From assembly GCA_028714635.1 (NCBI GenBank), contig JAQTLZ010000002.1, forward strand, positions 121,841 through 185,840: DNA of 64,000 bases. Reading direction: 5' to 3'. A model generated the notes under the pieces. It did no database searches. It was not told where the DNA came from and was given only the letters and a program-made list of their open reading frames with translations. The number at the start of each line of letters is the position of its first letter. The stretch's first letter is position 1. Position numbers and translations under genes: made by a program. Source of the stretch: Minisyncoccota bacterium (GTDB taxonomy: Bacteria; Patescibacteriota; Minisyncoccia; Phycocordibacterales; JAQTLZ01). Below, in pieces: positions 1-45,051 of this stretch.

Positions 1-381
1 AACACTACGGTTATTGTTACCGATCCATCCGCGCCTATCATTACTGTGACTGCGCCAAATGGCGGAGAGAATTGGAAAATAAACGCTACGCGGGCGATAA
101 CATGGAGAGACAGTAACTATAATTCCAGCGCAAAAATTGATTTGTACTTGGGCAAACAATTGCCCGTCGTGTGCGTAAAAGCTCCCTGCGGACCTTTCTT
201 TGAATCATCTACGTACGTACTTGATAAAAATATTCCAAATACCGGTGTCTATAATTGGATCGTAGGAACAGACATCGTTAATAACCCTATTCCGCCAGAC
301 AGTTATGGTCTTCGAATTTGTGTAAGCGGGACTGACAATTGCGACTTGAGCGATGAGCCGTTTACACTTATTAATAATTAA
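1..381 (+). CDS. 3' fragment of a secreted/cell-surface protein (beta-sandwich surface repeat); start lies upstream of the window
   Basis: Frame 1 is open from nt 1 to the stop at 379-381; track ORF 46..381 is its tail. The NGGENW..ITW..IDLYL pattern is typical of surface Ig-like repeats. Confidence 0.6.
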
Positions 382-392
382 TTATTCATAGT

Positions 393-1151
393 ATGCCCCT
401 TTTTTTTCTCGTTTTTGTCGTCGTCGTATTATTGTTTCTCTCGCTTAAGGTTTTGAAGGAGTACGAGCGGGGAGTCATTTTCTTTCTTGGAAAATCTACT
501 GGTATGCGAGGTCCCGGACTTATTATTCTCGTCCCCATTTTGGAAAAGATGACGCGAGTGGAGCTTCGTACTATCACGATGAATATTCCGTCCCAGAAAA
601 TTATTACCAAAGATAATGTGTCTATTGATATCGCCGCTGTCGCTTATTATCACGTCGTCGATTCAATAAAATCTGTCATTGCTATTGAAAATGTTGCAAG
701 CGCAGTCAATCAAATCAGTCAGACTACGGTGCGAAATGTCGTCGGGCGATTCAAGCTCGATGAGCTTCTTTCGCAGACTTCAGAGATCAATATAGACATA
801 AAAGATACGATAGACAGCCATACCGAGCCGTGGGGAGTGCAGGTCACCGCCGTAGAAATCAAAGACATTACGCTTCCTGATAACATGCAAAGAGCGATGG
901 CAAAAGAAGCTGAAGCAGAACGAGAAAGACGGGCAAAAATTGTTGCGGCAGAAGGAGAATTTCAGGCGGCGGTAAAGCTTGGCGAAGCGGCAGATATTAT
1001 TTCGGCTCACCCCGTAGCATTGCAACTGAGGACACTTCAAACAATGGCAGAGATTGCTACCGAGAGAAATTCTACAATTATTTTCCCAGCGCAATTCATG
1101 ACGACTGTTGCGGATGCGATGGCGACAATTCGACAGGATAACAAGAAATAG
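393..1151 (+). CDS. SPFH/band-7 (stomatin/prohibitin-like) membrane protein
   Basis: 252 aa. N-terminal TM helix, then [27 protein letters not shown] and an [11 protein letters not shown] coiled region, which are SPFH domain hallmarks. Confidence 0.9.
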
Positions 1152-1220: not shown

Positions 1221-1292
1221 GGTGGCTATGGTGTAGCGGCAGCACAAGAGCTTGTGGAGCTTTTAGTCTGGGTTCAACTCCCAGTAGCCACC
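1221..1292 (+). tRNA. tRNA-His (anticodon GTG) with genomically encoded G-1
   Basis: Manual cloverleaf: G-1 at 1221, acceptor GTGGCTA/TAGCCAC, D arm GTGT-AGCGGCA-GCAC, anticodon loop TTGTGGA, T arm CTGGG-TTCAACT-CCCAG, C73. CCA is not encoded (CAA follows). Confidence 0.9.
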
Positions 1293-1325
1293 CAAGGAAA
1301 CAAAACAGCCGAAAGGCTGTTTTGT

Positions 1326-1467
1326 CTTGGGTGGCTAAGTGAGCAACCAAGGTTGCTCACGTCTGGGAGTTGAAGCCCGATTGAGCACACCGCCCTTTTA
1401 AAACAAAAGGGCGGGGTCCAATCGGGGTACTGCTTCTGTAAGAAGCGACATCCCCAGTAGCCACCCA
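1326..1467 (+). ncRNA. tRNA-His-derived structured element containing copy A of the GUACWG/UGUAA motif
   Basis: Outer helix GGGTGGCT(1329-1336)/AGCCACCC(1459-1466). Hairpin 1339-1360. CTGGG(1363-1367)/CCCAG(1453-1457). P-a helix CCCGATTG(1376-1383)/CAATCGGG(1419-1426) enclosing hairpin 1391-1415. GTACTG 1427-1432. Hairpin CTTC-TGTAA-GAAG 1433-1445. Confidence 0.6.
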
Positions 1468-1545
1468 AACAAAACATGTAACCAGTCTCTCGGTATTTCG
1501 TCATTTTGAGTAAAGGTCGCATTACTCAATTCTTAGAAAAAAACT

Positions 1546-5052: not shown

Positions 5053-6720
5053 ATGACTCAAGCAGAAGCGCTGAAAATTTTAAAAACGGGAGCAAATATT
5101 TTTCTCACGGGAGAGCCAGGGAGTGGCAAGACGCATACTATAAATGAATATACGCGCTATTTGCGTCAATGCGGGATTGAGCCCGCTATTACCGCTTCGA
5201 CAGGCATTGCCGCGACCCATATCGGAGGAATGACCATTCATTCGTGGAGCGGGATTGGAATTCGGAAATTTCTCAATGGATATGATCTGGATAAAATTGC
5301 GACCAGCGAATATGTGGCAAAGAGGGTCCGCAAAGCCAAAGTGCTGGTGATAGACGAAGTCTCGATGCTTTCTCCGGAAACTCTCTCGATGGTTGACGCG
5401 GTGTGTCGGGAAGTGAAAGGGAATACTGACGCGTTCGGAGGAATGCAAGTGATTTTTGTCGGAGATTTTTTCCAGCTTCCGCCGGTTGTGAAAGCAGATG
5501 TGGAATCTGAAAGCCAGTTATTTGAAGAAGAAGCTCCTCCTCGCTTTGCATATGGTTCGCCTTCGTGGAGAAACGCGAAAGTGCTTACCTGCTATTTGAG
5601 CGAGCAGTACCGCCAGGATGATAGTGATTTTCTCTCGCTTCTCTCTGCGATTCGGCAAAATACTTTCGGCGACGCGCATAAAGAACATCTTGAAGCGAGA
5701 AAGATTGGAGAGAAGAAAATTTCAAAAGATGTGCCTCGGCTTTTTTCTCATAATGCGAATGTTGATCTTTTGAATGACCAGATGCTCGGAGCACTCTCTG
5801 AAGAACCGCATGTATATCTCATGACCTCGAGTGGGAAACCCTTTTTAATTGAGGCGTTAAAAAAGGGATGTCTCTCTCCCGAAAAACTTTCACTGAAAAT
5901 CGGCGCATCGGTGATGTTTACCAAAAATAATCCCAAAGAAGGATTTGTAAATGGAACACTCGGTACTGTTTCCGGATTTGAGTCGAGTTCAAATTTTCCT
6001 ATTGTACAACTTCGAAATGGAAAAAAGATCGTGGTAACTCCGCTCGAATGGTCCGTGGAAGAAAATGGAAAAGTGCGAGCGCAAATTTCACAGCTTCCTC
6101 TTCGTCTTGCATGGGCGATTACGGTGCATAAAAGCCAAGGGATGAGCCTGGACGAGGCGGTGATGGATCTTTCGCAGGTGTTTGAATACGGACAAGGATA
6201 TGTGGCCCTTTCCCGCGTGCGCCGACTTTCAGGATTGCATCTTCTCGGTTGGAATGCAAAAACATTTCAGGTGCATCCGGAAGTGCTCTCGAAAGATGAG
6301 TCATTTCGAATTGCGTCGGATGAGGCGGCAGAAATTTTCGGGAAAATTTCTGCCGCCGAGCTCGACAAAATGCACGACAATTTTGTGAAAATATCTGGAG
6401 GGAACAGGCCAAAGCCAAAGATCGGTAGCTCGGAAGTGAAAGGTGACCCCAGTAGCGAAGCTATGCTCGCTACGGGGCAAGGAAAGAAAACGCTCGAAAA
6501 AATAAGAGAAAAACATCCGAATGCCTATCGTAAATGGGATGAAGCCCAAGATAAACAACTCAAAGATTTATTTGCAGAAAAGAAATCAATCCCTGATCTT
6601 ATGAAATTGCTCGGAAGGAAAAAGGGTGCAATTCAGATGCGTCTTTTGAAATTCGGACTTATCGAGGATGATGGTTTTTCTTTAGCCTTTCAGAAGAAAA
6701 AAGCAAAAAAGAATGGATAA
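5053..6720 (+). CDS. PIF1/RecD-like SF1 DNA helicase with a C-terminal HTH-like tail
   Basis: 555 aa. Walker A GEPGSGKT, VLVIDEVSM, FVGDFFQLPPV, and TVHKSQG near the C-terminal core. Confidence 0.85.
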   Translation: MTQAEALKILKTGANIFLTGEPGSGKTHTINEYTRYLRQCGIEPAITASTGIAATHIGGMTIHSWSGIGIRKFLNGYDLDKIATSEYVAKRVRKAKVLVIDEVSMLSPETLSMVDAVCREVKGNTDAFGGMQVIFVGDFFQLPPVVKADVESESQLFEEEAPPRFAYGSPSWRNAKVLTCYLSEQYRQDDSDFLSLLSAIRQNTFGDAHKEHLEARKIGEKKISKDVPRLFSHNANVDLLNDQMLGALSEEPHVYLMTSSGKPFLIEALKKGCLSPEKLSLKIGASVMFTKNNPKEGFVNGTLGTVSGFESSSNFPIVQLRNGKKIVVTPLEWSVEENGKVRAQISQLPLRLAWAITVHKSQGMSLDEAVMDLSQVFEYGQGYVALSRVRRLSGLHLLGWNAKTFQVHPEVLSKDESFRIASDEAAEIFGKISAAELDKMHDNFVKISGGNRPKPKIGSSEVKGDPSSEAMLATGQGKKTLEKIREKHPNAYRKWDEAQDKQLKDLFAEKKSIPDLMKLLGRKKGAIQMRLLKFGLIEDDGFSLAFQKKKAKKNG

Positions 6721-17709: not shown

Positions 17710-18132
17710 ATGGCAAAGAAAGTAACAAAAAAATTGAAGCTTGTGATCGCCGGGGGAAAGGCAAACCCAGCTCCACCAATTGGCCCTGCGCTTGGTCAGG
17801 CTGGTATTAACATTGGGGAGTTCGTCACCAAGTTCAACGCTGCAACCAAGGATATGATCGGAGACCTCGTTCCCGTACAGGTTTTTGTATACGAAGACCG
17901 AACATTCTCTTTTGTCACCAAGACTCCTCCCGCATCGAGCCTTATCATGAAGGCGATCAAGATCGACAAAGGTTCAGGCAAGCCAAACACCTCAAAAGTA
18001 GGAAAGATCAGCCGAGCGCAGATCAAAGCAATTGCAGAAAAGAAACTTCCTGATTTGAATGCGAATGATTTGGCTGGGGCTATGAAGATTATTGAGGGAA
18101 GCGCCCGCTCAATGGGGGTTGATGTGATCTAA
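17710..18132 (+). CDS. rplK: 50S ribosomal protein L11
   Basis: 140 aa. [19 protein letters not shown] signature. Confidence 0.95.
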
Positions 18133-18224
18133 ATCACATCAACCGACCTTTTGAGACAGAATTCCGCGTATGCGCGGAAATTATGTCCAAAAGGTGTACT
18201 GCTCCTGTAAGGAGTTGATGTGAT
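18118..18224 (+). ncRNA. copy B of the GUACWG/UGUAA motif with flanking triple repeat
   Basis: GTTGATGTGAT (18118-18128, end of rplK), its complement ATCACATCAAC (18133-18143), P-a ACCTTTTG/CAAAAGGT (18146-18153/18188-18195), inner hairpin TTCCGCG..CGCGGAA, GTACTG 18196-18201, CTCC-TGTAA-GGAG 18202-18214, then GTTGATGTGAT again (18214-18224). Confidence 0.6.
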
Positions 18225-18240
18225 TGGATAAATAATGATA

Positions 18241-18278
18241 AAAAGCCCCGCGCCGTAAGGAGCGGGGCTTTTCTTTTT
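18241..18278 (+). terminator. rho-independent terminator
   Basis: GCCCCGC(18245-18251)/GCGGGGC(18262-18268), then TTTTCTTTTT. Confidence 0.8.
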
Positions 18279-18297: not shown

Positions 18298-20943
18298 ATG
18301 GAAAATTTTACTCCTAAAAATCCAGCCGAACTCGAACTTCAGCTCCAGAAGGCCAGCCAAACTCTTGGAGAATCTATTGCCGTTCCTTCTAAAATAGCAG
18401 ATACGCTTGGTATTTCTTTAGAAGACCTTAAGGTCAAGTTTCCTCGACGATACGAGGCGTATCTCAAGCTTATCCGAGCTGAGAAAAACAACCAGGAAAT
18501 TCCGCAAGAAGATCTCGAACATTTTCAAAAATGGATTCGAGCACTTAACAATCTTGATCGTTATATAGAATCACAAAAGACCGAAATCGGCAGAACCCTT
18601 CGTGAAAAACAAGTAGGCGTTTTCGAGGATATGAGGGATTTCGTGGAAGAGGGTGGCCAGGCTGGTTACGTTAAATTACCTACGGGATTTGGTAAGACTG
18701 TCATTTTCTCTCAATTCGTAGAGGCTCTTGGCTTACGTACACTTATCGCAGTCCCCAAGAAGAATCTTGTCCACCAAACAGCAAAAAGCCTTGAACGGTT
18801 CACTGATCTTGATGTTGGAAAACTGTATCAATATGCCAAAGAGCACGATAAGCCAGTGACGGTTAGTACATACCAATCGATGATAAAGGAAACTGAAGAT
18901 GGAGGATTAAAGCCGGAAGAGTACGACTGCCTTATCTTGGACGAAGCGCATAAAGCACTTGGGCCAAAAAGTGTTCACACCATTGAAAAGTTTGATCATG
19001 CGCTCCGGCTCGGATTCACAGCCACTCCGCAATATTCTGAAACAAAAGGAGTGCAAGATCTTTTGGAAACAGAAATCCACAGCATCTCGATCAAAGAGGC
19101 TGTGGACGATGGGGCGCTTTCCTCCTTTTCGGTCATTTTAGCAAGAACTAAAGTAGACCTTTCGAAAGTAAAGGTGAAATCTGACGGAGAATATGATGAA
19201 AAAGATTTGGAAAAAGCCATAAACGTAGCTTCCCGCAATATGGCTGCAATCAATCTTTATAAAAAGATGTTTAATGGAAAACACGCAATGGCCTATTGCG
19301 CTGGTGTCGAACATGCCCGGGAAGTTGCACGACTTTTCAACGAAGCTGGCATCAAAAGCGTAGCGGTCGCAGGTGAAGACCATCTTTCGGAAGAAGAAAT
19401 GTTGGATATCTTTGAAAAATTCCGTTCAGGAGAGATCAAAGTGATTACCAATGCTGATATTTTTGTCGAAGGATTCGATGAGCCGAAAGCTTCTGTGTGT
19501 CTCAATTTGCGCCCAACCGCATCACCGGTCGTGGCAGAACAGCGGGGCGGTAGAGTTTTGAGACTAGATCCTTCCGATGAGAATAAGCACGCGTTTATCG
19601 TTGACTTTGTTGATGAGGATGAGAAGGCAGATTCCATAAATATTTCTTTTGCAGAAGTTGCGGAAGCTTCTGAATTTCCTCCGAGGACAAACTCGCGTCT
19701 CGGAGAGGTCACTCCAGATCAAACTGAATCAGTTTCTCGCGAGAAAAGCGATATTGTCATCGAAGGGCTGGAGCTTGTAACTGATCCGAATGAAGTTATG
19801 AGGCTCGTACAGAACAAGGCGTCCAGAAAAAAAGGAACAAATGCCGAGCTAGAAGCTCAGGAAATACCGAAATGCCCGGAAGGATGGCTTGCCGTTTTGT
19901 ATTTTTCTGATGACCAACATAAAAAATATGGTTTAAAAAGATATATGGAACGTTCCATAATTTCTAGGGTAGAGCGCAAAAACGCGCATCTCTTCGGTCA
20001 ATTTAGAAGCGAGCGAAAAACGCAAGATACAGAGTGGTTTTTGTCGCCTGAAGCGCAGGCTCTTATTGAAAAGGATATGGCTTATCATGCGGGGTGGGAC
20101 TTGAAAGAGAGAGGATATACTTCTGGGCTTGAGCTCAGTAAAAGATTCGCTCTTTTTAGAGAAAAATTTCGACATTTGGAAGATGAAATATCAGAGGCGG
20201 ATCCGCAAGCGATAATTACCCGTACCTATCAGAGATTTTATTCTGCGGATGCAATAAAAGAAATTGAGGCTGTTTATGGCAAGTTTGCTCCAGAGGGATG
20301 GATTTATCGGGCGGATATCTTCCGTAAATATTTTGGCGGTAGTAAAACTGGGGGTGACGCAGGGAACAAGTTGGTGGAAAAGTTGAAGAAAGAGATGCCT
20401 GATGAAGTCGATGTGTTTGTGAATAGGCCAACTGGCCATAGTTTAGAGTTCTATTCGCCTCGTTTTGTTGAAGAGTTTGGGAAGAGAGATATAACCAGTG
20501 TCTACAAAAGCAAAGAAGAAAAAGCAAAGCGCATCGAGGATAAGAAGCGGGAAGGTCCTCCTTCGGGGTGGTTTCCTGTGAAAGATATTGTTATTTTGTG
20601 TCGAATTAAGGAACCTTTCCTCAGGCGCAAATTGAATGATATGGAGTTTTTGCACGATAATGAAATTAAAAATCTCGCTTTCGGCTTTAAGACGAACATA
20701 CTCTGTGCCACGGCAAAAATAATTCGCCAAATTATCCTGGATGATTGTAAACGTATCAAAACGGGAGAGCCGCCAGCTGGCTGGCAATCAACAGATGAGA
20801 TTTTACAGGCAAGAAGCTTAGAACTGCAAGATTTCTACTATAAACTTCTTTCTTTGCTGCCGACTCCAGAGACTATGAAGAGATATACAAAGAAAGGTGT
20901 CACTGACTACTATTTCAGTCCTGATTTTTTGGCAAAGTTATAA
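18298..20943 (+). CDS. SF2 DEAD/DEAH-box (ResIII-type) helicase with a repeat-containing C-terminal extension of about 430 aa
   Basis: Motif I PTGFGKT, motif II LDEAHKA, motif III FTATPQ, plus a helicase-C region. TGATATAGT -10 box ends 6 nt before the ATG. Confidence 0.8.
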   Translation: MENFTPKNPAELELQLQKASQTLGESIAVPSKIADTLGISLEDLKVKFPRRYEAYLKLIRAEKNNQEIPQEDLEHFQKWIRALNNLDRYIESQKTEIGRTLREKQVGVFEDMRDFVEEGGQAGYVKLPTGFGKTVIFSQFVEALGLRTLIAVPKKNLVHQTAKSLERFTDLDVGKLYQYAKEHDKPVTVSTYQSMIKETEDGGLKPEEYDCLILDEAHKALGPKSVHTIEKFDHALRLGFTATPQYSETKGVQDLLETEIHSISIKEAVDDGALSSFSVILARTKVDLSKVKVKSDGEYDEKDLEKAINVASRNMAAINLYKKMFNGKHAMAYCAGVEHAREVARLFNEAGIKSVAVAGEDHLSEEEMLDIFEKFRSGEIKVITNADIFVEGFDEPKASVCLNLRPTASPVVAEQRGGRVLRLDPSDENKHAFIVDFVDEDEKADSINISFAEVAEASEFPPRTNSRLGEVTPDQTESVSREKSDIVIEGLELVTDPNEVMRLVQNKASRKKGTNAELEAQEIPKCPEGWLAVLYFSDDQHKKYGLKRYMERSIISRVERKNAHLFGQFRSERKTQDTEWFLSPEAQALIEKDMAYHAGWDLKERGYTSGLELSKRFALFREKFRHLEDEISEADPQAIITRTYQRFYSADAIKEIEAVYGKFAPEGWIYRADIFRKYFGGSKTGGDAGNKLVEKLKKEMPDEVDVFVNRPTGHSLEFYSPRFVEEFGKRDITSVYKSKEEKAKRIEDKKREGPPSGWFPVKDIVILCRIKEPFLRRKLNDMEFLHDNEIKNLAFGFKTNILCATAKIIRQIILDDCKRIKTGEPPAGWQSTDEILQARSLELQDFYYKLLSLLPTPETMKRYTKKGVTDYYFSPDFLAKL

Positions 20944-21024
20944 TTCTCGTCTTCGTCTATACTTATATAGACCAAGAATTTATCGTATATGTTAAACTAA
21001 TTCCATTATCATCTCTTTATTTTT

Positions 21025-22878
21025 ATGAACAAAAAAGGATTTTTGCCGGTTCTCATTGGAATAATTATCGCACTTCTTTTAGTCGGCGGGGGAATATTCT
21101 ATTTTGTTAAAAAACAGCAAACGGTATCTTCCTCTGTTGATGCTGTTTCTACTGCTGATTGGAAAACATATGGAAACGAGAAAGACGGTTTTGAATTTCA
21201 GTATCCCCCAAAATTTAAAATTGACCCAAATGCTTCCGAAGTATTTTTCGACATAACAGGAGAAGATAATCAGGTATTTTTTAGTGCTTCTGCTGACCCG
21301 ATCGTGGATGCACATGGAGTACCTTTGACTTTCGAAAAGTGGCTCAAATATTATGGCTTTGACGAGGGGTACAAAAGAGAAAACAGAACAATCAACGGGA
21401 ATTCATGGCTACGTTTAGAAGGTTCGGGTCGCGGTAGGACTTTTTATATTCTCGTGAAAGGAAATATGATGTACAGCTTTATTATGGGCTATGGAGCTCA
21501 GAATCGGCCGGACTTGCTTTTGTTGCAGGATAAAATTGTTACCACTTTCAAATTTACCTCTAATTCCATCTCCACTTCCGATTGGAAAACATACAGAAAC
21601 ATAAAAGAAAGATTTCAAATGCAGTATCCTCCCAGTTGGAAGGTGGTTGAAAATGTTTCTGCTCCATATCTTGTAAAATTTGTTGATCCTCTTCGTGAAG
21701 CAAAGCCGGGTACCGATCAGTCGGAAGATATGGTCTTAGTAGGTACGGGCACAATAAAACCCGCTGACTGGGAGAAAGGCTCCGGTTCGGTTTTCTGGAA
21801 GCAGGATTATGTAACGGGGGAACGCTACGTAAGAATGTCAGCCTTTGATGAAACTTCAGAAAAAATTGAAGAAAAAATTCAGTCTAGTTTTAGATTTTTA
21901 GAAGAAAAGGCGGGATGGTCTAGCTATCGAAGTACAACAGATCAATTTGATATATCTTATCCCGGCCTCTCGGCTCTGAATTTTTGGAAATTAAAGCAAG
22001 AACCCATAGAAGTTTATACCAATAAGTTACTTTTCGATTCAAGAGGGTGTCTTATAAGTAATCAAAAAAATCCTCTTGAATATATTGGAAGCCCTCTTCT
22101 TGGTGGTATTCAATTTTGTCTTAATCAAAGCATTGATCGTTCGATGGGAAATGTTTCTCTCGATTATTACTACACTACATTTAAATTCGGGAAATTTTAT
22201 GTAATTCACCTCAAGTCTGAAGGTCTTTGCACAGCCGATTCTTCAAAATCCTCTGATATTTGCAGTCTTGATAACCCCTCTGTCCAGTCGCGCATAAGGC
22301 AAGATGGGGATGAAGTTGCACTGTCTTTCAAATTTTTGGAGCCAGATCAATCAAAAGCTGATTGGGATACGTCCCCGGCAGATTGGTTGGTTTATAAGCA
22401 CCCGATTTATGGGTATTCTCTCAAATATCCTAGGAGTTTCTCGAACCATGATAGAGGAGAATCAGGAGAGAATTTAATTCCGCCCAATGATTATTTTGAG
22501 GGAACCACATTTCATGGCGGAGCCAGTTTTATAACCGGTATAAATGATGTTGATGAAAAAAACTGTTCAATGATACCTTATCGTTCCACTCAAGAGCTGG
22601 CCCGTGTTGTGAAGGATGGGCAAGTCTATTATAAAATTCAAACGAGCACTATCATGGCGGGAGATCCAAGGGACAGAGATCTCACTATTCAATACAGCGC
22701 GTTTAAGAATAGGGTATGCTATCAACTTACATTGAGCATGTATATCGTGAATCCTTCATCTGTTTATTCCAATCCTGAAGAAATTCTCAATGCCCAAAAA
22801 CAGAATATTATAGTGGAAGAGAAGTTGAAAAAACTATTTGATGTGATTGCTCAGACTTTTGTTGTACCGGCTAATTAG
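21025..22878 (+). CDS. membrane-anchored extracellular repeat protein
   Basis: 617 aa. N-terminal TM, and four modules each opened by (D)W..Y.....F...YP (DWKTYGNEKDGFEFQYP, DWKTYRNIKERFQMQYP, GWSSYRSTTDQFDISYP, DWLVYKHPIYGYSLKYP). Confidence 0.7.
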   Translation: MNKKGFLPVLIGIIIALLLVGGGIFYFVKKQQTVSSSVDAVSTADWKTYGNEKDGFEFQYPPKFKIDPNASEVFFDITGEDNQVFFSASADPIVDAHGVPLTFEKWLKYYGFDEGYKRENRTINGNSWLRLEGSGRGRTFYILVKGNMMYSFIMGYGAQNRPDLLLLQDKIVTTFKFTSNSISTSDWKTYRNIKERFQMQYPPSWKVVENVSAPYLVKFVDPLREAKPGTDQSEDMVLVGTGTIKPADWEKGSGSVFWKQDYVTGERYVRMSAFDETSEKIEEKIQSSFRFLEEKAGWSSYRSTTDQFDISYPGLSALNFWKLKQEPIEVYTNKLLFDSRGCLISNQKNPLEYIGSPLLGGIQFCLNQSIDRSMGNVSLDYYYTTFKFGKFYVIHLKSEGLCTADSSKSSDICSLDNPSVQSRIRQDGDEVALSFKFLEPDQSKADWDTSPADWLVYKHPIYGYSLKYPRSFSNHDRGESGENLIPPNDYFEGTTFHGGASFITGINDVDEKNCSMIPYRSTQELARVVKDGQVYYKIQTSTIMAGDPRDRDLTIQYSAFKNRVCYQLTLSMYIVNPSSVYSNPEEILNAQKQNIIVEEKLKKLFDVIAQTFVVPAN

Positions 22879-22912
22879 AGTCTCTCCAGTGTTACCCTAT
22901 ATCTATCAACAG

Positions 22913-22940
22913 AAAATACTATCATATATGATAGTATTTT
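22913..22940. terminator. perfect palindromic bidirectional terminator
   Basis: AAAATACTATCATATATGATAGTATTTT, between convergent genes. Confidence 0.75.
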
Positions 22941-22976
22941 AGGAAAGGGAAAGGTCTACGTATAAGTGCTTTTTGA

Positions 22977-23906
22977 TTACATAGTGAAACCAGATGCAAT
23001 CATCTCACTAAGTTTCTTGCGCAGTATCTCATAACCATCGGGGATTTTTCTTCCTTGTTTTGTCTCCAGCATATGTTTTATGGGTCTTATAAGACCTGGG
23101 AATTTCGATCTTCTCAAGAGATCTTTGTCCTTTTGACCACTATAGAATGAGAAAGTCTGCTCTGCGAAAAGATTTCCATAATCCCACAAGCCAGCAAAAT
23201 CTGCTGCCGGATCTGCGATGTCGATATCTGAAAAATCAATAATGCCGGTTAAGGCTCCTGTGGTTTGGTCAAAAAGTATATGTTTGTTGTTTAAATCATA
23301 ATGAATTATTTTTGGTTCAAAGTCGAAAGACAGACCGAGATATTCATTGAACTGGTGTTCAACCCAGTCAACCTCTTTGTTTGTCAATTCAGGAAAAACT
23401 TTCTCTCGTAACTCTTTTAAAATTGATTCGATATTTCGCTTTCCCCACCAGTGCCCTTTCGGATCAGCCTTGAAACCGCAGTTTCTCAATATCTCCGTCG
23501 GCGTCGAATGTAAATCCGAAATAAATTTTCCTAATGCTTTGGCGATATCAGTTTTTTGAATTTCACTTTGTGAATTGAAAAGTTCAGGTTGCATTTCAGT
23601 ACCAGTCAGCATTTGATATCCACCAAAGCTCCTGTCTTTAGAAAGATAGATATATTTGGGAATGGGTAGCGTTACTTTTGTGAGTAGGTGTTCTAGGAAT
23701 TTTACCTCCACTTGAAAACGTCGAATATAATTCTCCGATTTAGGAAAACGGAAAATGAGCCTATCGTCCAAGACGATCACATTGTTATCCCATCCATGAG
23801 TGATCAATCTGGAATTTTGAAACGAAACTTCGGGGAATTCCTTTTTTATAAGCTCCAGATATTCTTCTTTTGTTCTTTCCATAACTATTTTTCCAAAGTG
23901 ACCCAA
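22977..23906 (-). CDS. aminoglycoside/choline-kinase-like phosphotransferase (APH family)
   Basis: 309 aa. Brenner motif IIHYDLNNKHILF and IIDFSDIDIADP. Confidence 0.75.
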   Translation of the reverse strand: MGHFGKIVMERTKEEYLELIKKEFPEVSFQNSRLITHGWDNNVIVLDDRLIFRFPKSENYIRRFQVEVKFLEHLLTKVTLPIPKYIYLSKDRSFGGYQMLTGTEMQPELFNSQSEIQKTDIAKALGKFISDLHSTPTEILRNCGFKADPKGHWWGKRNIESILKELREKVFPELTNKEVDWVEHQFNEYLGLSFDFEPKIIHYDLNNKHILFDQTTGALTGIIDFSDIDIADPAADFAGLWDYGNLFAEQTFSFYSGQKDKDLLRRSKFPGLIRPIKHMLETKQGRKIPDGYEILRKKLSEMIASGFTM

Positions 23907-43890: not shown

Positions 43891-44961
43891 ATGAACAATG
43901 AGCCCCAAAATACCCTCATTCATATCTCCACGGGCACGATCATTAAAAGTCTCCTGTTTATTATCCTTGTCCTCGCCCTCTATTTTTTAAGAGATATCGT
44001 TCTCATTATTTTGACGGCGATCGTCATTGCATCAGCTATTGAACCAGCGACTCGATATCTTGTAGAGAAAAAAATTCCTCGGACGTTCTCTGTCGTTATT
44101 CTCTATGTACTTGTTATTTTTGCTCTTGCAGCTGTCTTTTATTTCCTTCTACCGACCCTTCTTTCAGAGACGACAAGTTTCTTGGAGAGAATAAACTCCA
44201 TCGATGTCCTCGGATCTTTGAAAGAACAAGGAATACTCTCTCCTGACAATCCGCTCCAAGGCCTTTCTTCGCAGTTTAATCTGCAAGGAGTTATCGGCTC
44301 TGTTCGGGGAGTGGTGAACCAGTTTTCGAGCGGGTTCTTTAATACTGCAAGCATCCTTTTCGGTGGAGCGCTTTCTTTCATTCTCATATTCGTGCTCTCT
44401 TTCTATTTTGCGGTGCAGGAAGACGGAGTGGAAGATTTTCTTCAAGTAGCATCGCCTATTCGGTATAAAAATTATGTAACGGATTTGTGGAAGCGTTCAC
44501 AGAAGAAGATTGGCCTCTGGCTTCAAGGCCAGCTTCTTCTCGGGCTTCTTGTCGGAGTTTTGGATTTTCTTGGCCTTACTATTTTCGGAATTAAGCATGC
44601 GCTTCTTCTCGCGGTCCTCGCAGCACTTTTGGAGATCATTCCGCTTTTCGGCCCAATTCTCTCTGCAATTCCAGGTGTTGCTATCGCGTTTGTGAGCGGA
44701 GGTACCCCGCTTGCGCTTTTAGTGCTTGCTTTGTACGTCATTGTTCAGCAGTTTGAGAATCATCTCATCTATCCTTTGGTGGTAAACAAAATAGTGGGTA
44801 TTTCGCCGATTCTTGTTATCATTTCGCTCCTTGTCGGTTGGAGACTTGCGGGATTCCTTGGGGTGCTTCTTTCTGTCCCGGTCGCGGCGGTATTCATGGA
44901 ATACTATTCTGATGTGCGAAAGAATAAATTCGGGCACCTCACCAAGGTGAGGGAAGGGTAG
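43891..44961 (+). CDS. AI-2E/PerM (UPF0118) family transporter
   Basis: 356 aa, 7-8 TM helices, LLEIIPLFGPILSAIP signature. TGATATGAT -10 box ends 6 nt before the ATG. Confidence 0.8.
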   Translation: MNNEPQNTLIHISTGTIIKSLLFIILVLALYFLRDIVLIILTAIVIASAIEPATRYLVEKKIPRTFSVVILYVLVIFALAAVFYFLLPTLLSETTSFLERINSIDVLGSLKEQGILSPDNPLQGLSSQFNLQGVIGSVRGVVNQFSSGFFNTASILFGGALSFILIFVLSFYFAVQEDGVEDFLQVASPIRYKNYVTDLWKRSQKKIGLWLQGQLLLGLLVGVLDFLGLTIFGIKHALLLAVLAALLEIIPLFGPILSAIPGVAIAFVSGGTPLALLVLALYVIVQQFENHLIYPLVVNKIVGISPILVIISLLVGWRLAGFLGVLLSVPVAAVFMEYYSDVRKNKFGHLTKVREG

Positions 44962-44977
44962 GGACCCGTCCCGCAAG

Positions 44978-45030
44978 ACCTTGAGTGTTTTGTAATCAAA
45001 AAGCGAAAGGTGTACAGCTCCTGTAAGGAG
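44978..45030 (+). ncRNA. copy C of the GUACWG/UGUAA motif, upstream of metG
   Basis: P-a ACCTT(44978-44982)/AAGGT(45007-45011) enclosing hairpin TTTTG-TAAT-CAAAA. GTACAG 45012-45017. CTCC-TGTAA-GGAG 45018-45030. Confidence 0.55.
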
Positions 45031-45051
45031 GAATATCAAAGACATAATTTC

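Follow-up and report, generated by a model that had tools for sequence, protein, structure and literature searches.

The 64,000-nt stretch of DNA that we analysed, called the window below, carries a tRNA-His gene, the rplK gene for ribosomal protein L11 and a permease gene that precedes metG, and one copy of a structured motif lies at or just beyond the 3′ end of each (copies A, B and C; Table 1). On re-reading the sequence, we found all three copies where a preliminary description had placed them, all on the + strand, and its helices also proved right: P-a pairs CCCGAUUG with CAAUCGGG in A and ACCUUUUG with CAAAAGGU in B, P-b pairs CUUC with GAAG in A and CUCC with GGAG in B and C, and UUGAG is common to the three. 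A 19-nt pattern, GTACWGCTYCTGTAAGRAG, occurs without mismatch at 1427, 18196 and 45012, each time on the + strand; dinucleotide-preserving shuffles gave a chance expectation of 0.04 matches in the window, and 0 of 100 shuffles reached four. When a covariance model was run over the whole window with filters off, it returned exactly three copies (B 59.6, C 57.9 and A 53.4 bits), the next-best match scoring 11 bits. Single-sequence folding recovered both the P-a and the P-b hairpins (z = -5.5 for A, -6.7 for B and -2.3 for C). Our analysis covered the window, the at least 120 loci listed for the pattern and the corresponding loci of relatives; L-numbers are locus labels. X1 denotes the host sequence 5′ of an insert, X2 its direct copy and X′ its inverted copy.

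Table 1. Features of the three copies and of the adjoining genes in the window.
Feature	Position	Strand	Basis
tRNA-His gene	1222..1293	+	ARAGORN and Rfam tRNA model
Copy A X1, 3′ part of tRNA-His, T-loop to trailer	about 1273-1309	+	sequence
Terminator-like hairpin ACAAAACAGCC-GAAA-GGCUGUUUUGU	1300..1325	+	read from sequence
Copy A X′a CTTGGGTGGCTA	1326..1337	+	reverse complement of TAGCCACCCAAG, tRNA-His acceptor 3′ strand and trailer
Copy A hp1 GUGAGCAAC-CAAG-GUUGCUCAC	1338..1362	+	fold
Copy A X′b and junction CTGGGAGTTGAA-G	1363..1375	+	reverse complement of tRNA-His T-loop and T-stem 3′ strand
Copy A core: P-a 1376-1426, linker GUACUG 1427-1432, P-b CUUC-UGUAA-GAAG 1433-1445	1376..1445	+	pattern, fold, covariance model
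Copy A X2 CCCCAGTAGCCACCCAAACAAAACA	1452..1476	+	direct repeat of tRNA-His T-stem 3′ strand, acceptor 3′ strand and trailer
rplK (ribosomal protein L11)	17710..18132	+	Pfam families of the gene product
Copy B X1, last 12 nt and stop codon of rplK	18117-18132	+	comparison with relatives
Copy B X′ ATCACATCAACC(G)	18133..18145	+	sequence, fold; absent in relatives
Copy B core: P-a 18146-18195, linker GUACUG 18196-18201, P-b CUCC-UGUAA-GGAG 18202-18214	18146..18214	+	pattern, fold, covariance model
Copy B X2 GTTGATGTGATTGGATAAAT	18214..18233	+	ancestral rplK end (V D V I G stop), by-eye comparison with empty sites L122 and L123
Terminator, after the ancestral spacer 3′ of copy B X2	about 18243-18275
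Copy C, 95-nt insert	44948..45042	+	alignment with relatives L124 and L126; covariance model
Copy C UGAG	44948-51	+
Copy C hp1	44951-44972	+
Copy C CGCAAG	44972-77	+
Copy C P-a	44978-45011	+
Copy C linker GUACAG	45012-17	+
Copy C P-b	45018-30	+
Copy C tail GAAUAUCAAAGA	45031-42	+

The core of the motif is a three-way junction, in which a closing stem, the long variable hairpin P-a and the hairpin P-b meet and the linker G-N-A-C-W-G joins P-a to P-b. It runs in the order AAG, P-a, G-N-A-C-W-G and P-b, the last being a hairpin of 5-6 bp with an invariant UGUAA loop. Compensatory changes in the stems had been claimed from three sequences, and the covariation found in 136 copies shows that they are real. 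In 61 hand-selected copies both sides change in all 8 outer P-a pairs (the outer variants include ACC/GGU, CCC/GGG, AGG/CCU, CUG/CGG and AGC/GCU), and paired cells amount to 89.9%, compared with 71.5% in shuffles and 38-55% in slid controls. Across the 136 copies both sides change in 19 of 19 modelled pairs and 89.7% of cells are paired, against 67.3% after shuffling (0 of 500 shuffles reach the observed value) and 39-54% with slid partners, although relatedness among many copies, and an alignment fitted to the model, mean that there were fewer independent events than these cell counts suggest. At least eight types of P-a and a dozen types of P-b occur. Thirty-four of the 136 copies fall outside the seed pattern and are therefore unbiased for P-b; there the hairpin is kept by other pairs (UUCG/CGAA, CGUC/GACG, CCGC/GCGG, AUCC/GGAU, ACCC/GGGU, AGUC/GACU, AACC/GGUU and GUCG/CGAC), while the UGUAA loop, its C-G closing pair and the linker stay fixed.

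The five outer P-a pairs contain G-U and A-C in a ratio of 16:2, and the short forms of P-a contain tandem G.A/A.G pairs (UGAG...CGAA). Both features argue that the structure is read on this strand and looks like RNA; from sequence, it might also be formed by single-stranded DNA of the top strand. We rejected a coding reading, under which GUACWGCUYCUGUAAGRAG would give V-Y-C/S-S/F-C-K-E/K, because P-a lengths are not multiples of three (48/37/28 by residue modulo three) and the variation is compensatory. At L005 and L014 the upstream ORF reads through the element. A hammerhead-like reading of the apical UGAG...CGAA was discarded as well, since half of the hammerhead core (CUGA) is absent and the motif is simply one of tandem G.A pairs.

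The preliminary description had recognised no known RNA family in the motif, and a search of the window with Rfam 15 agrees. At the gathering threshold the whole window returned tRNA only, and at E <= 10 nothing relevant overlapped copies A and B, the best overlapping match being the trpB motif, which scored 29.4 bits against a threshold of 59 and was driven by the downstream terminator. The 19-nt pattern, run against 185,579 species genomes, gave at least 120 loci, and we estimate that chance alone would yield about 35 matches over all phyla; viral contigs were not matched by it. Among the matches listed, almost all lie in Patescibacteria MAGs, from Paceibacterota/Parcubacteria through Kaiser-, Nomura-, Zambryski-, Taylor-, Yonath- and Azambacteria to MAGs labelled Saccharibacteria. 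At every listed locus a hairpin precedes the pattern, its 3′ strand abutting GUAC and its 5′ strand preceded by CGCAAG or (U/C)GAA(G/A). Scanning with a covariance model, a check that had been proposed with a model of the three original copies, brought up additional copies: model R1 found 136 in 710 kb made up of 100 of the listed loci, which confirms the earlier view of a dispersed element. Recent paralogous copies with differing flanks (L050, L030) and tandem arrays (L022, L026, L034) occur. Our literature search returned no relevant described Patescibacteria repeat or RNA motif and no account of this element, which would thus appear to be a previously uncatalogued, structured small insertion element found across Patescibacteria. 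The AU-rich P-a, and hairpins being common in intergenic DNA, might suggest chance, low-complexity sequence or ordinary terminators. The excess of the pattern (3 against 0.04 expected), its range (at least 120 listed loci, nearly all in one phylum) and covariation far above the controls refute this reading, to which we assign a negligible probability.

By comparison with close relatives, the copies are insertions, and they are able to decay. The window itself is matched by assembly GCA_028711105.1, a Candidatus Pacebacteria MAG. Two relatives encode L11 proteins that are 96-98% identical to that of the window and one residue longer, ending in ...GVDVIG, and their copy-B site is empty (L122, L123): rplK reads GT.GATGT.ATTGGATAA and is followed directly by a short spacer and a terminator. 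In the window this region reads GTTGATGTGAT-C-TAA (X1, ...GVDVI*), ATCACATCAACC (X′), G, the core and GTTGATGTGATTGGATAAAT (X2), and a like spacer and terminator follow X2. The comparison with the empty sites identifies X2 as the ancestral end of rplK; X1 is a new copy of the gene end, made with the insertion. Copy B was thus inserted five codons before the old stop codon, with a target duplication of 11 nt (20 nt with one indel) that restored the reading frame. Likewise, the copy C site of the relatives L124 and L126 reads ...AAGG and then C(G/T)TAA with no insert between them, followed by metG, and the 95-nt insert of the window entered two codons ahead of the stop codon that the permease gene originally had. 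The last codons of the permease are now derived from the element, and its present stop codon TAG (44959-44961) lies in the hp1 loop of copy C, within the element. These empty sites put copies B and C inside the ends of rplK and the permease gene, so that the intergenic placement given to all three in the preliminary description is too simple. The alignment of copy C with L124 and L126 gave no clear target duplication, which counts against a mobile element.

The tRNA-His locus adds turnover to this picture. One relative (L127) has there a copy with an intact core, a differing P-b (ACCC/GGGU) and about 130 nt of extra hairpins in place of hp1, and the X2 and X′b of this copy match the tRNA-His of the window, not L127's own tRNA. 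The other relative (L128) retains a decayed relic only, ...GTGGTATGCTTTTAAGAGATGAAGCCATCCCCAGT... Gain, turnover and decay on the time scale of close relatives fit an insertion element.

Two features had escaped the preliminary description, namely that the flanks copy host gene ends in direct and inverted orientation and that the element is strongly linked to the 3′ ends of tRNA genes. We compared the first 60 nt downstream with the 220 nt upstream of each of 127 evaluable copies. Exact direct repeats of at least 10 nt accompany 37.8% of copies but 1.9% of permuted controls, and inverted repeats of at least 9 nt accompany 24.4% and 6.4%, respectively. Where present, the duplicated host sequence X1...X2 measures 10-49 nt, with 49 nt at L034. 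The inverted copy X′ often lies directly 5′ of the core, and X′ and X2 together form the closing stem. A closing stem that would be built anew from direct and inverted copies of each target is the unusual feature of this family. In copy B, X′ is the perfect reverse complement of both X1 and X2 and can pair either with X1, as a 12-bp hairpin with loop CUAA, or with X2, as the closing stem. The rplK end is duplicated in four genera (the window, L013, L026 and L040), and X1 and X′ form a perfect stem in each of them. For four genera to carry a copy at exactly this rplK position, either the site must be strongly preferred or the copy must be old and its stems maintained, a point against mobility. 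Other direct repeats cover about 46 nt over the start of a glycosidase gene (L005; L014 is similar), the start of msrA (L105), 35 nt at L094 and the 5′ 40 nt of a tRNA-Gln (L020). Copies sit at the extreme ends of genes and are only somewhat more often in the same orientation as neighbouring protein genes than in the opposite one (about 60:40). Those that we call class 1 have the layout UGAG-hp1-CGCAAG-core, without X′b, and adjoin protein-gene ends or partial tRNA copies at other positions (L003, L046).

A same-strand tRNA gene lies within 400 nt upstream of 51 of 139 copies (37%), with a distance peak at 50-90 nt, and these tRNAs represent 17 identities. The order is stereotyped: tRNA; trailer with a terminator-like hairpin; X′a; (N)AG, hp1, GUG; X′b; GAAG, core, A; X2. 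X′a is complementary to the acceptor 3′ strand with its discriminator and trailer, X′b to the 3′ strand of the T-stem and to the T-loop. X2 repeats 18-26 nt of the tRNA exactly, beginning at position 56/57 and ending a few nt beyond the discriminator. Throughout, X′ is a perfect complement of X2 and was not copied from the tRNA's own 5′ strands. At L084, for example, the T-stem 5′ strand of tRNA-Arg is CUGGG, against CCAGG in the element. Copy A follows the same rule. The host sequence copied around it is the 3′ part of tRNA-His; its X2 repeats 16 nt exactly, plus an extension; its X′a pairs with the trailer AAG, whereas the leader of tRNA-His does not pair there and differs from X′a, which was thus not copied from the 5′ end of the tRNA. 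The hairpin between tRNA-His and X′a is the apex of a long palindrome formed by X1 and X′, a layout equally found after tRNAs in other genomes, and hp1 takes the place from which the D and anticodon domain would branch off in a tRNA, as does the homologous hairpin in other copies.

In class 2 copies, X′a-hp1-X′b-core-X2b-X2a thus reproduces acceptor-type and T-type stems in tRNA order, with hp1 in place of the D and anticodon domain and the core in place of the T-loop; copies B and C lack these tRNA-order stems. Neither ARAGORN nor the tRNA model called a tRNA at the tRNA-like copies, whose T-loop is not canonical. One copy at L084 is a chimera with its 5′ arm from a Val-like tRNA and its 3′ arm from tRNA-Pro, which shows that copies recombine with each other.

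These arrangements bear on the earlier proposal of a functional RNA, a generic processing or regulatory module. Such a host-beneficial structured RNA might act in 3′-end processing, stability or termination, or as a tRNA-like decoy or sponge displaying the T-stem and acceptor of the tRNA next to it; its copies would spread by duplication and be kept by selection. The strong conservation of loops and linker in many lineages, the precise tRNA-like layout after tRNAs of 17 identities, the position of copy B in the rplK 3′ UTR before the terminator and the occupation of the rplK site in four genera, with a perfect X1:X′ stem in each, would all suit this view. Nevertheless, two loci are empty in close relatives without any replacement, the copy at L128 has decayed to a relic, the X2 of L127 mismatches its own tRNA, and about 40% of the copies that are not linked to tRNAs run antisense to the neighbouring genes. 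Moreover, perfect stems that extend into the non-conserved trailer look like recent templated copying, not like long-term compensation. We consider a host RNA unlikely, and an insertion element fits the orientation of the copies, the absence of B and C from relatives and the decayed copy better. The core is conserved over several candidate phyla within Patescibacteria, an observation that would also fit a host function.

A catalytic function seems very improbable to us. From sequence, a small ribozyme or intron-like RNA could be imagined that splices itself out of host transcripts or serves as a 'repair' cassette in trans-splicing, X′ being the guide, the core the catalyst and X2 the replacement 3′ exon. 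This would account for the X′-core-X2 layout, in which X′ is complementary and X2 identical to the upstream gene end, for inserts within coding ends and partial tRNA copies, and perhaps for class 1 copies starting with (G)GUGAG and all ending in G. However, models of group I introns (Intron_gpI), group II introns and self-cleaving ribozymes were unmatched by copies A and B even at E <= 10, the core comprises merely about 60-80 nt, and the unspliced genes are already intact, which makes splicing unnecessary. A group I intron, on which PMC13011429 was checked, fits neither the size nor the covariance models, and group II introns are reported to be absent from Patescibacteria (PMC13011429).

Further candidates were set aside. 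A T-box-like cis-regulatory leader of metG does not suit a core that is also found after rplK and tRNAs and that relatives lack upstream of metG. TIGR-Tas guide arrays and IS110 bridge RNAs were dismissed because their layout, 8-12 nt spacers flanked by box C/D motifs beside a Tas or IS110 protein (PMC12045711), is not seen here. The template and variable repeats of diversity-generating retroelements (DGRs) have the wrong geometry for this element, and its repeat differences are not adenine-specific.

The best reading of our data is a small (about 70-170 nt), non-autonomous element family whose conserved core is the motif and which, among the matches listed, is found almost only in Patescibacteria. 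We regard it as probable that this family is a mobile, structured insertion element. It would probably spread via a sense-strand intermediate, either RNA or single-stranded DNA, and the invariant 3′ module (linker and P-b) is a putative recognition or priming site of a mobilising enzyme. Insertion may take place at staggered nicks of variable spacing, leaving target duplications of variable length, after which the nascent strand would snap back on the target copy and create X′. The variable repeat lengths suggest nicks at variable spacing, as in target-primed synthesis, and argue against a transposase with a fixed stagger; the perfect X′, set apart from X1 by a 4-nt loop (copy B) or by a hairpin apex (tRNA copies), is what snap-back synthesis would leave. 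Yet a single snap-back does not account for the interruption of X′ by hp1, and after tRNAs the terminator-like hairpin lies between X1 and the insert, so that the repeat is not a simple flanking duplication. This specific combination of target-primed and snap-back chemistry is a tentative and rather doubtful proposal. In tRNA-linked copies, RNase P and RNase Z may be able to free the element from read-through transcripts by way of the tRNA-like scaffold. Target genes survive, either through the duplicated segment, which rebuilds their end, or through a stop codon contributed by the element. Copies A, B and C differ in P-a subtype, so that there was no recent burst from a single master copy, a point against mobility.

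A scan of 20 window proteins found neither a reverse transcriptase nor a transposase. Clustering of 766 ORFs from the at least 120 listed loci returned as recurrent families housekeeping proteins and a Y1/RAYT transposase with its own repeats. This transposase bears on another possibility, that the element is a single-stranded DNA recombination site of the REP, PATE or attC-like kind, with hairpins for an HUH or tyrosine recombinase. The element is composed of hairpins, its structure is strand-specific, its orientation is largely independent of neighbouring protein genes, and Y1 (IS200/RAYT-like) transposase genes occur at 5 of 120 listed loci. However, the RAYT-like gene of L086, the one locus examined, is flanked by its own, differing palindromes GGTACGAGGTCCGACCTCGTACC, the window has no Y1/RAYT-like gene, and tandem sheared G.A pairs and G-U pairs are typical features of RNA. 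IS200/IS605-type insertion is generally described as occurring without target duplication, unlike the element, where repeats of 10-49 nt are common. A site of this kind is improbable in our judgement.

In a bolder version of the mobile reading, the family would correspond in bacteria to SINE-type retroposons or be a natural RNA of the 'guide-catalyst-replacement exon' type. Such a structured RNA would draw on tRNA transcription and on tRNA-processing enzymes and, on insertion, take up copies of part of its target in both orientations. We deem this version improbable, if slightly less so than a recombination site. If true, it would mean a locus-specific, tRNA-mimicking scaffold and a mode of RNA-mediated mobility or transcript repair undescribed in bacteria.

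Patescibacteria have genomes of roughly 1 Mb that are thought to be poor in repetitive or mobile DNA, and a phylum-wide element of this kind would be an unrecognised source of genome variation and of annotation error in them. It would remodel gene ends, as in the window, where L11 has lost its last residue and the permease has gained four, and it would mark tRNA 3′ flanks and create tRNA-like scaffolds there. The element would also be a useful marker for strain comparison and a tractable case of a small RNA or DNA structure that copies its target in direct and inverted orientation. Should the tRNA mimicry be functional, it would bear on tRNA processing or on tRNA-targeted conflict in these episymbionts.

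Several known systems share part of this architecture. Like bacterial small interspersed repeats (MITEs, ERIC, BOX/RUP, Correia and Rickettsia palindromic elements), the element is short, non-coding, multi-copy and hairpin-forming, intergenic or tolerated at or inside gene ends, and present or absent between relatives. It differs in having no conserved terminal inverted repeats, its terminal stems being host sequence that differs at each locus (for instance the rplK end or tRNA 3′ ends), and in target duplications that, instead of the fixed length of a MITE, range from 0 to 49 nt (none in C, 11-20 nt in B, 49 nt in L034). Its core, moreover, is kept by covariation with invariant loops, and it strongly prefers tRNA 3′ ends. 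With REP/REPIN sequences and their RAYTs and with IS200/IS605-derived PATEs, it shares dispersed hairpins recognised as a structure on one strand, and RAYT-like genes occur in these genomes. However, the palindromes at the RAYT-like gene of L086 are unrelated to the element, so that no cognate transposase is apparent there. Duplications are common in the element, and we know of no REP or PATE insertion that duplicates or inverts 10-49 nt of its target.

The attL/attR sites left by integrases at tRNA genes resemble the tRNA-linked copies in that a partial direct repeat, reaching from the T-loop to a few nt past the 3′ end, stands downstream of an intact tRNA; the att-like repeat of L003 starts in the anticodon or variable region. 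Unlike integrated elements, the insert measures about 130-160 nt with no integrase or other coding capacity, the repeat is joined to a structured core inside a pseudo T-loop, an inverted copy of the repeat is present too, and insertion also takes place in the ends of protein genes (rplK, permease). tRNA-like structures (the tRNA-like domain of tmRNA, viral TLS, mascRNA) compare with class 2 copies, in which acceptor-like and T-like stems stack in the order of a tRNA and a side hairpin is placed at the 7/49 junction, and the tRNA-like domain of tmRNA is likewise a three-way junction of an acceptor stem, a long helix and a 5-bp hairpin. In contrast to them, the element has a UGUAA pentaloop for the canonical T-loop, no anticodon arm and an acceptor helix that extends into the trailer, and class 1 and rplK-type copies do without the scaffold.

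Finally, SINEs and other target-primed retroposons are, like this element, non-autonomous, with tRNA-like structure, flanking duplications of variable length and some truncated copies. Duplications of this type are seen here at a site that is empty in relatives (copy B, 11-20 nt) and, at 10 nt or more, in 38% of copies, and the conserved 3′ stem-loop could serve as a recognition site by analogy with SINEs. Copies without the P-a 5′ strand occur at L062, L077, L078, L093 and L112, loci that were seeded by the 3′ pattern; among matches found by the covariance model alone, 5′- and 3′-truncated copies both occur, with no clear excess of 5′ truncation. The differences from SINEs are that the element is bacterial, has no A-tail and had no reverse-transcriptase partner among the proteins scanned, and that its tRNA-like part is not inherited but copied from the local target.

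Several loci near tRNA genes bear more than one element copy (see table). Two of them hold tandem arrays of complete element units 3' of a tRNA gene, with a period of about 139 nt in L022, and every unit in both arrays has a pseudo acceptor stem and a pseudo T stem of its own, together the closing stem built from copied host tRNA 3' sequence. At L084, two element cores lie downstream of tRNA-Pro, the first being followed by the 3' end of another, Val-like tRNA. The 5' arm of the second core is complementary to the end of this Val-like tRNA and its 3' arm is identical to tRNA-Pro; this second copy is a product of recombination between elements of different tRNA loci. At L078, two copies stand tail to tail and adjoin an antisense tRNA-Ile. 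One has no P-a 5' strand, and in the other both the linker (GGGCAG) and P-b (UUCC/GGAA) are variants.

In L127, a relative with a copy after tRNA-His, about 130 nt of additional, nearly perfect hairpins, e.g., GCCGGAAATTTTTA...TAAAAATTTCCGGC, occupy the exact position of hp1, the side hairpin 5' of the core, in other copies. Their accumulation there points to some palindrome-generating process acting locally.

The stretch directly 3' of copy B is a variable island, since the rplK-DHFR interval contains three genes in the window versus a single small ORF in two close relatives lacking this copy (L122 and L123). The gene following rplK is not rplA (L1) in any of these three genomes. Between nusG and rplK, L122 has an inserted GIY-YIG ORF, found neither in the window nor in the other relative. 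No connection was found between the element and the PIF1-like helicase gene of the window.

Features discussed, by position in the window or in numbered loci (L) from other genomes
Feature	Sequence	Position	Strand	Length	Location
PIF1-like helicase gene	window	5053-6720		555 aa	~3.6 kb downstream of copy A
Variable island	window	18298-23906			directly downstream of copy B
ResIII/DEAD helicase	window	within 18298-23906		881 aa	between rplK and DHFR gene
Unannotated protein	window	within 18298-23906		617 aa	between rplK and DHFR gene
APH-family phosphotransferase	window	within 18298-23906			between rplK and DHFR gene
GIY-YIG ORF	L122	1215-1439		74 aa	
Tandem array	L022	2255-2605	-		
Tandem array	L034	600-800			
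Two cores	L084	6430-6730			
Two copies	L078	2040-2240	-		
Extra hairpins	L127	2480-2595			
Duplicated glycosidase start	L005	~5380-5520			
Duplicated glycosidase start	L014	~330-470			
Y1 transposase gene and preceding palindromes	L086	3117-3270, 3282-3935			

In two genomes (L005 and L014), duplication of the start of a glycosidase gene has created, in an identical pattern, an upstream ORF that opens with the first 12 codons of the gene itself, runs without a stop across the whole element and terminates shortly 5' of the real start codon. Two typical copies lie on a contig labelled Acidimicrobiales (L012, JBLIMJ010000002.1), which could be a mis-binned Patescibacteria contig or a rare case outside the phylum.

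At L086, three copies of the perfect palindrome GGTACGAGGTCCGACCTCGTACC precede a Y1 (IS200/RAYT-like) transposase gene, and similar genes are present in L001, L054, L088 and L108. The L086 gene and its palindromes are a REP-like system separate from the element.
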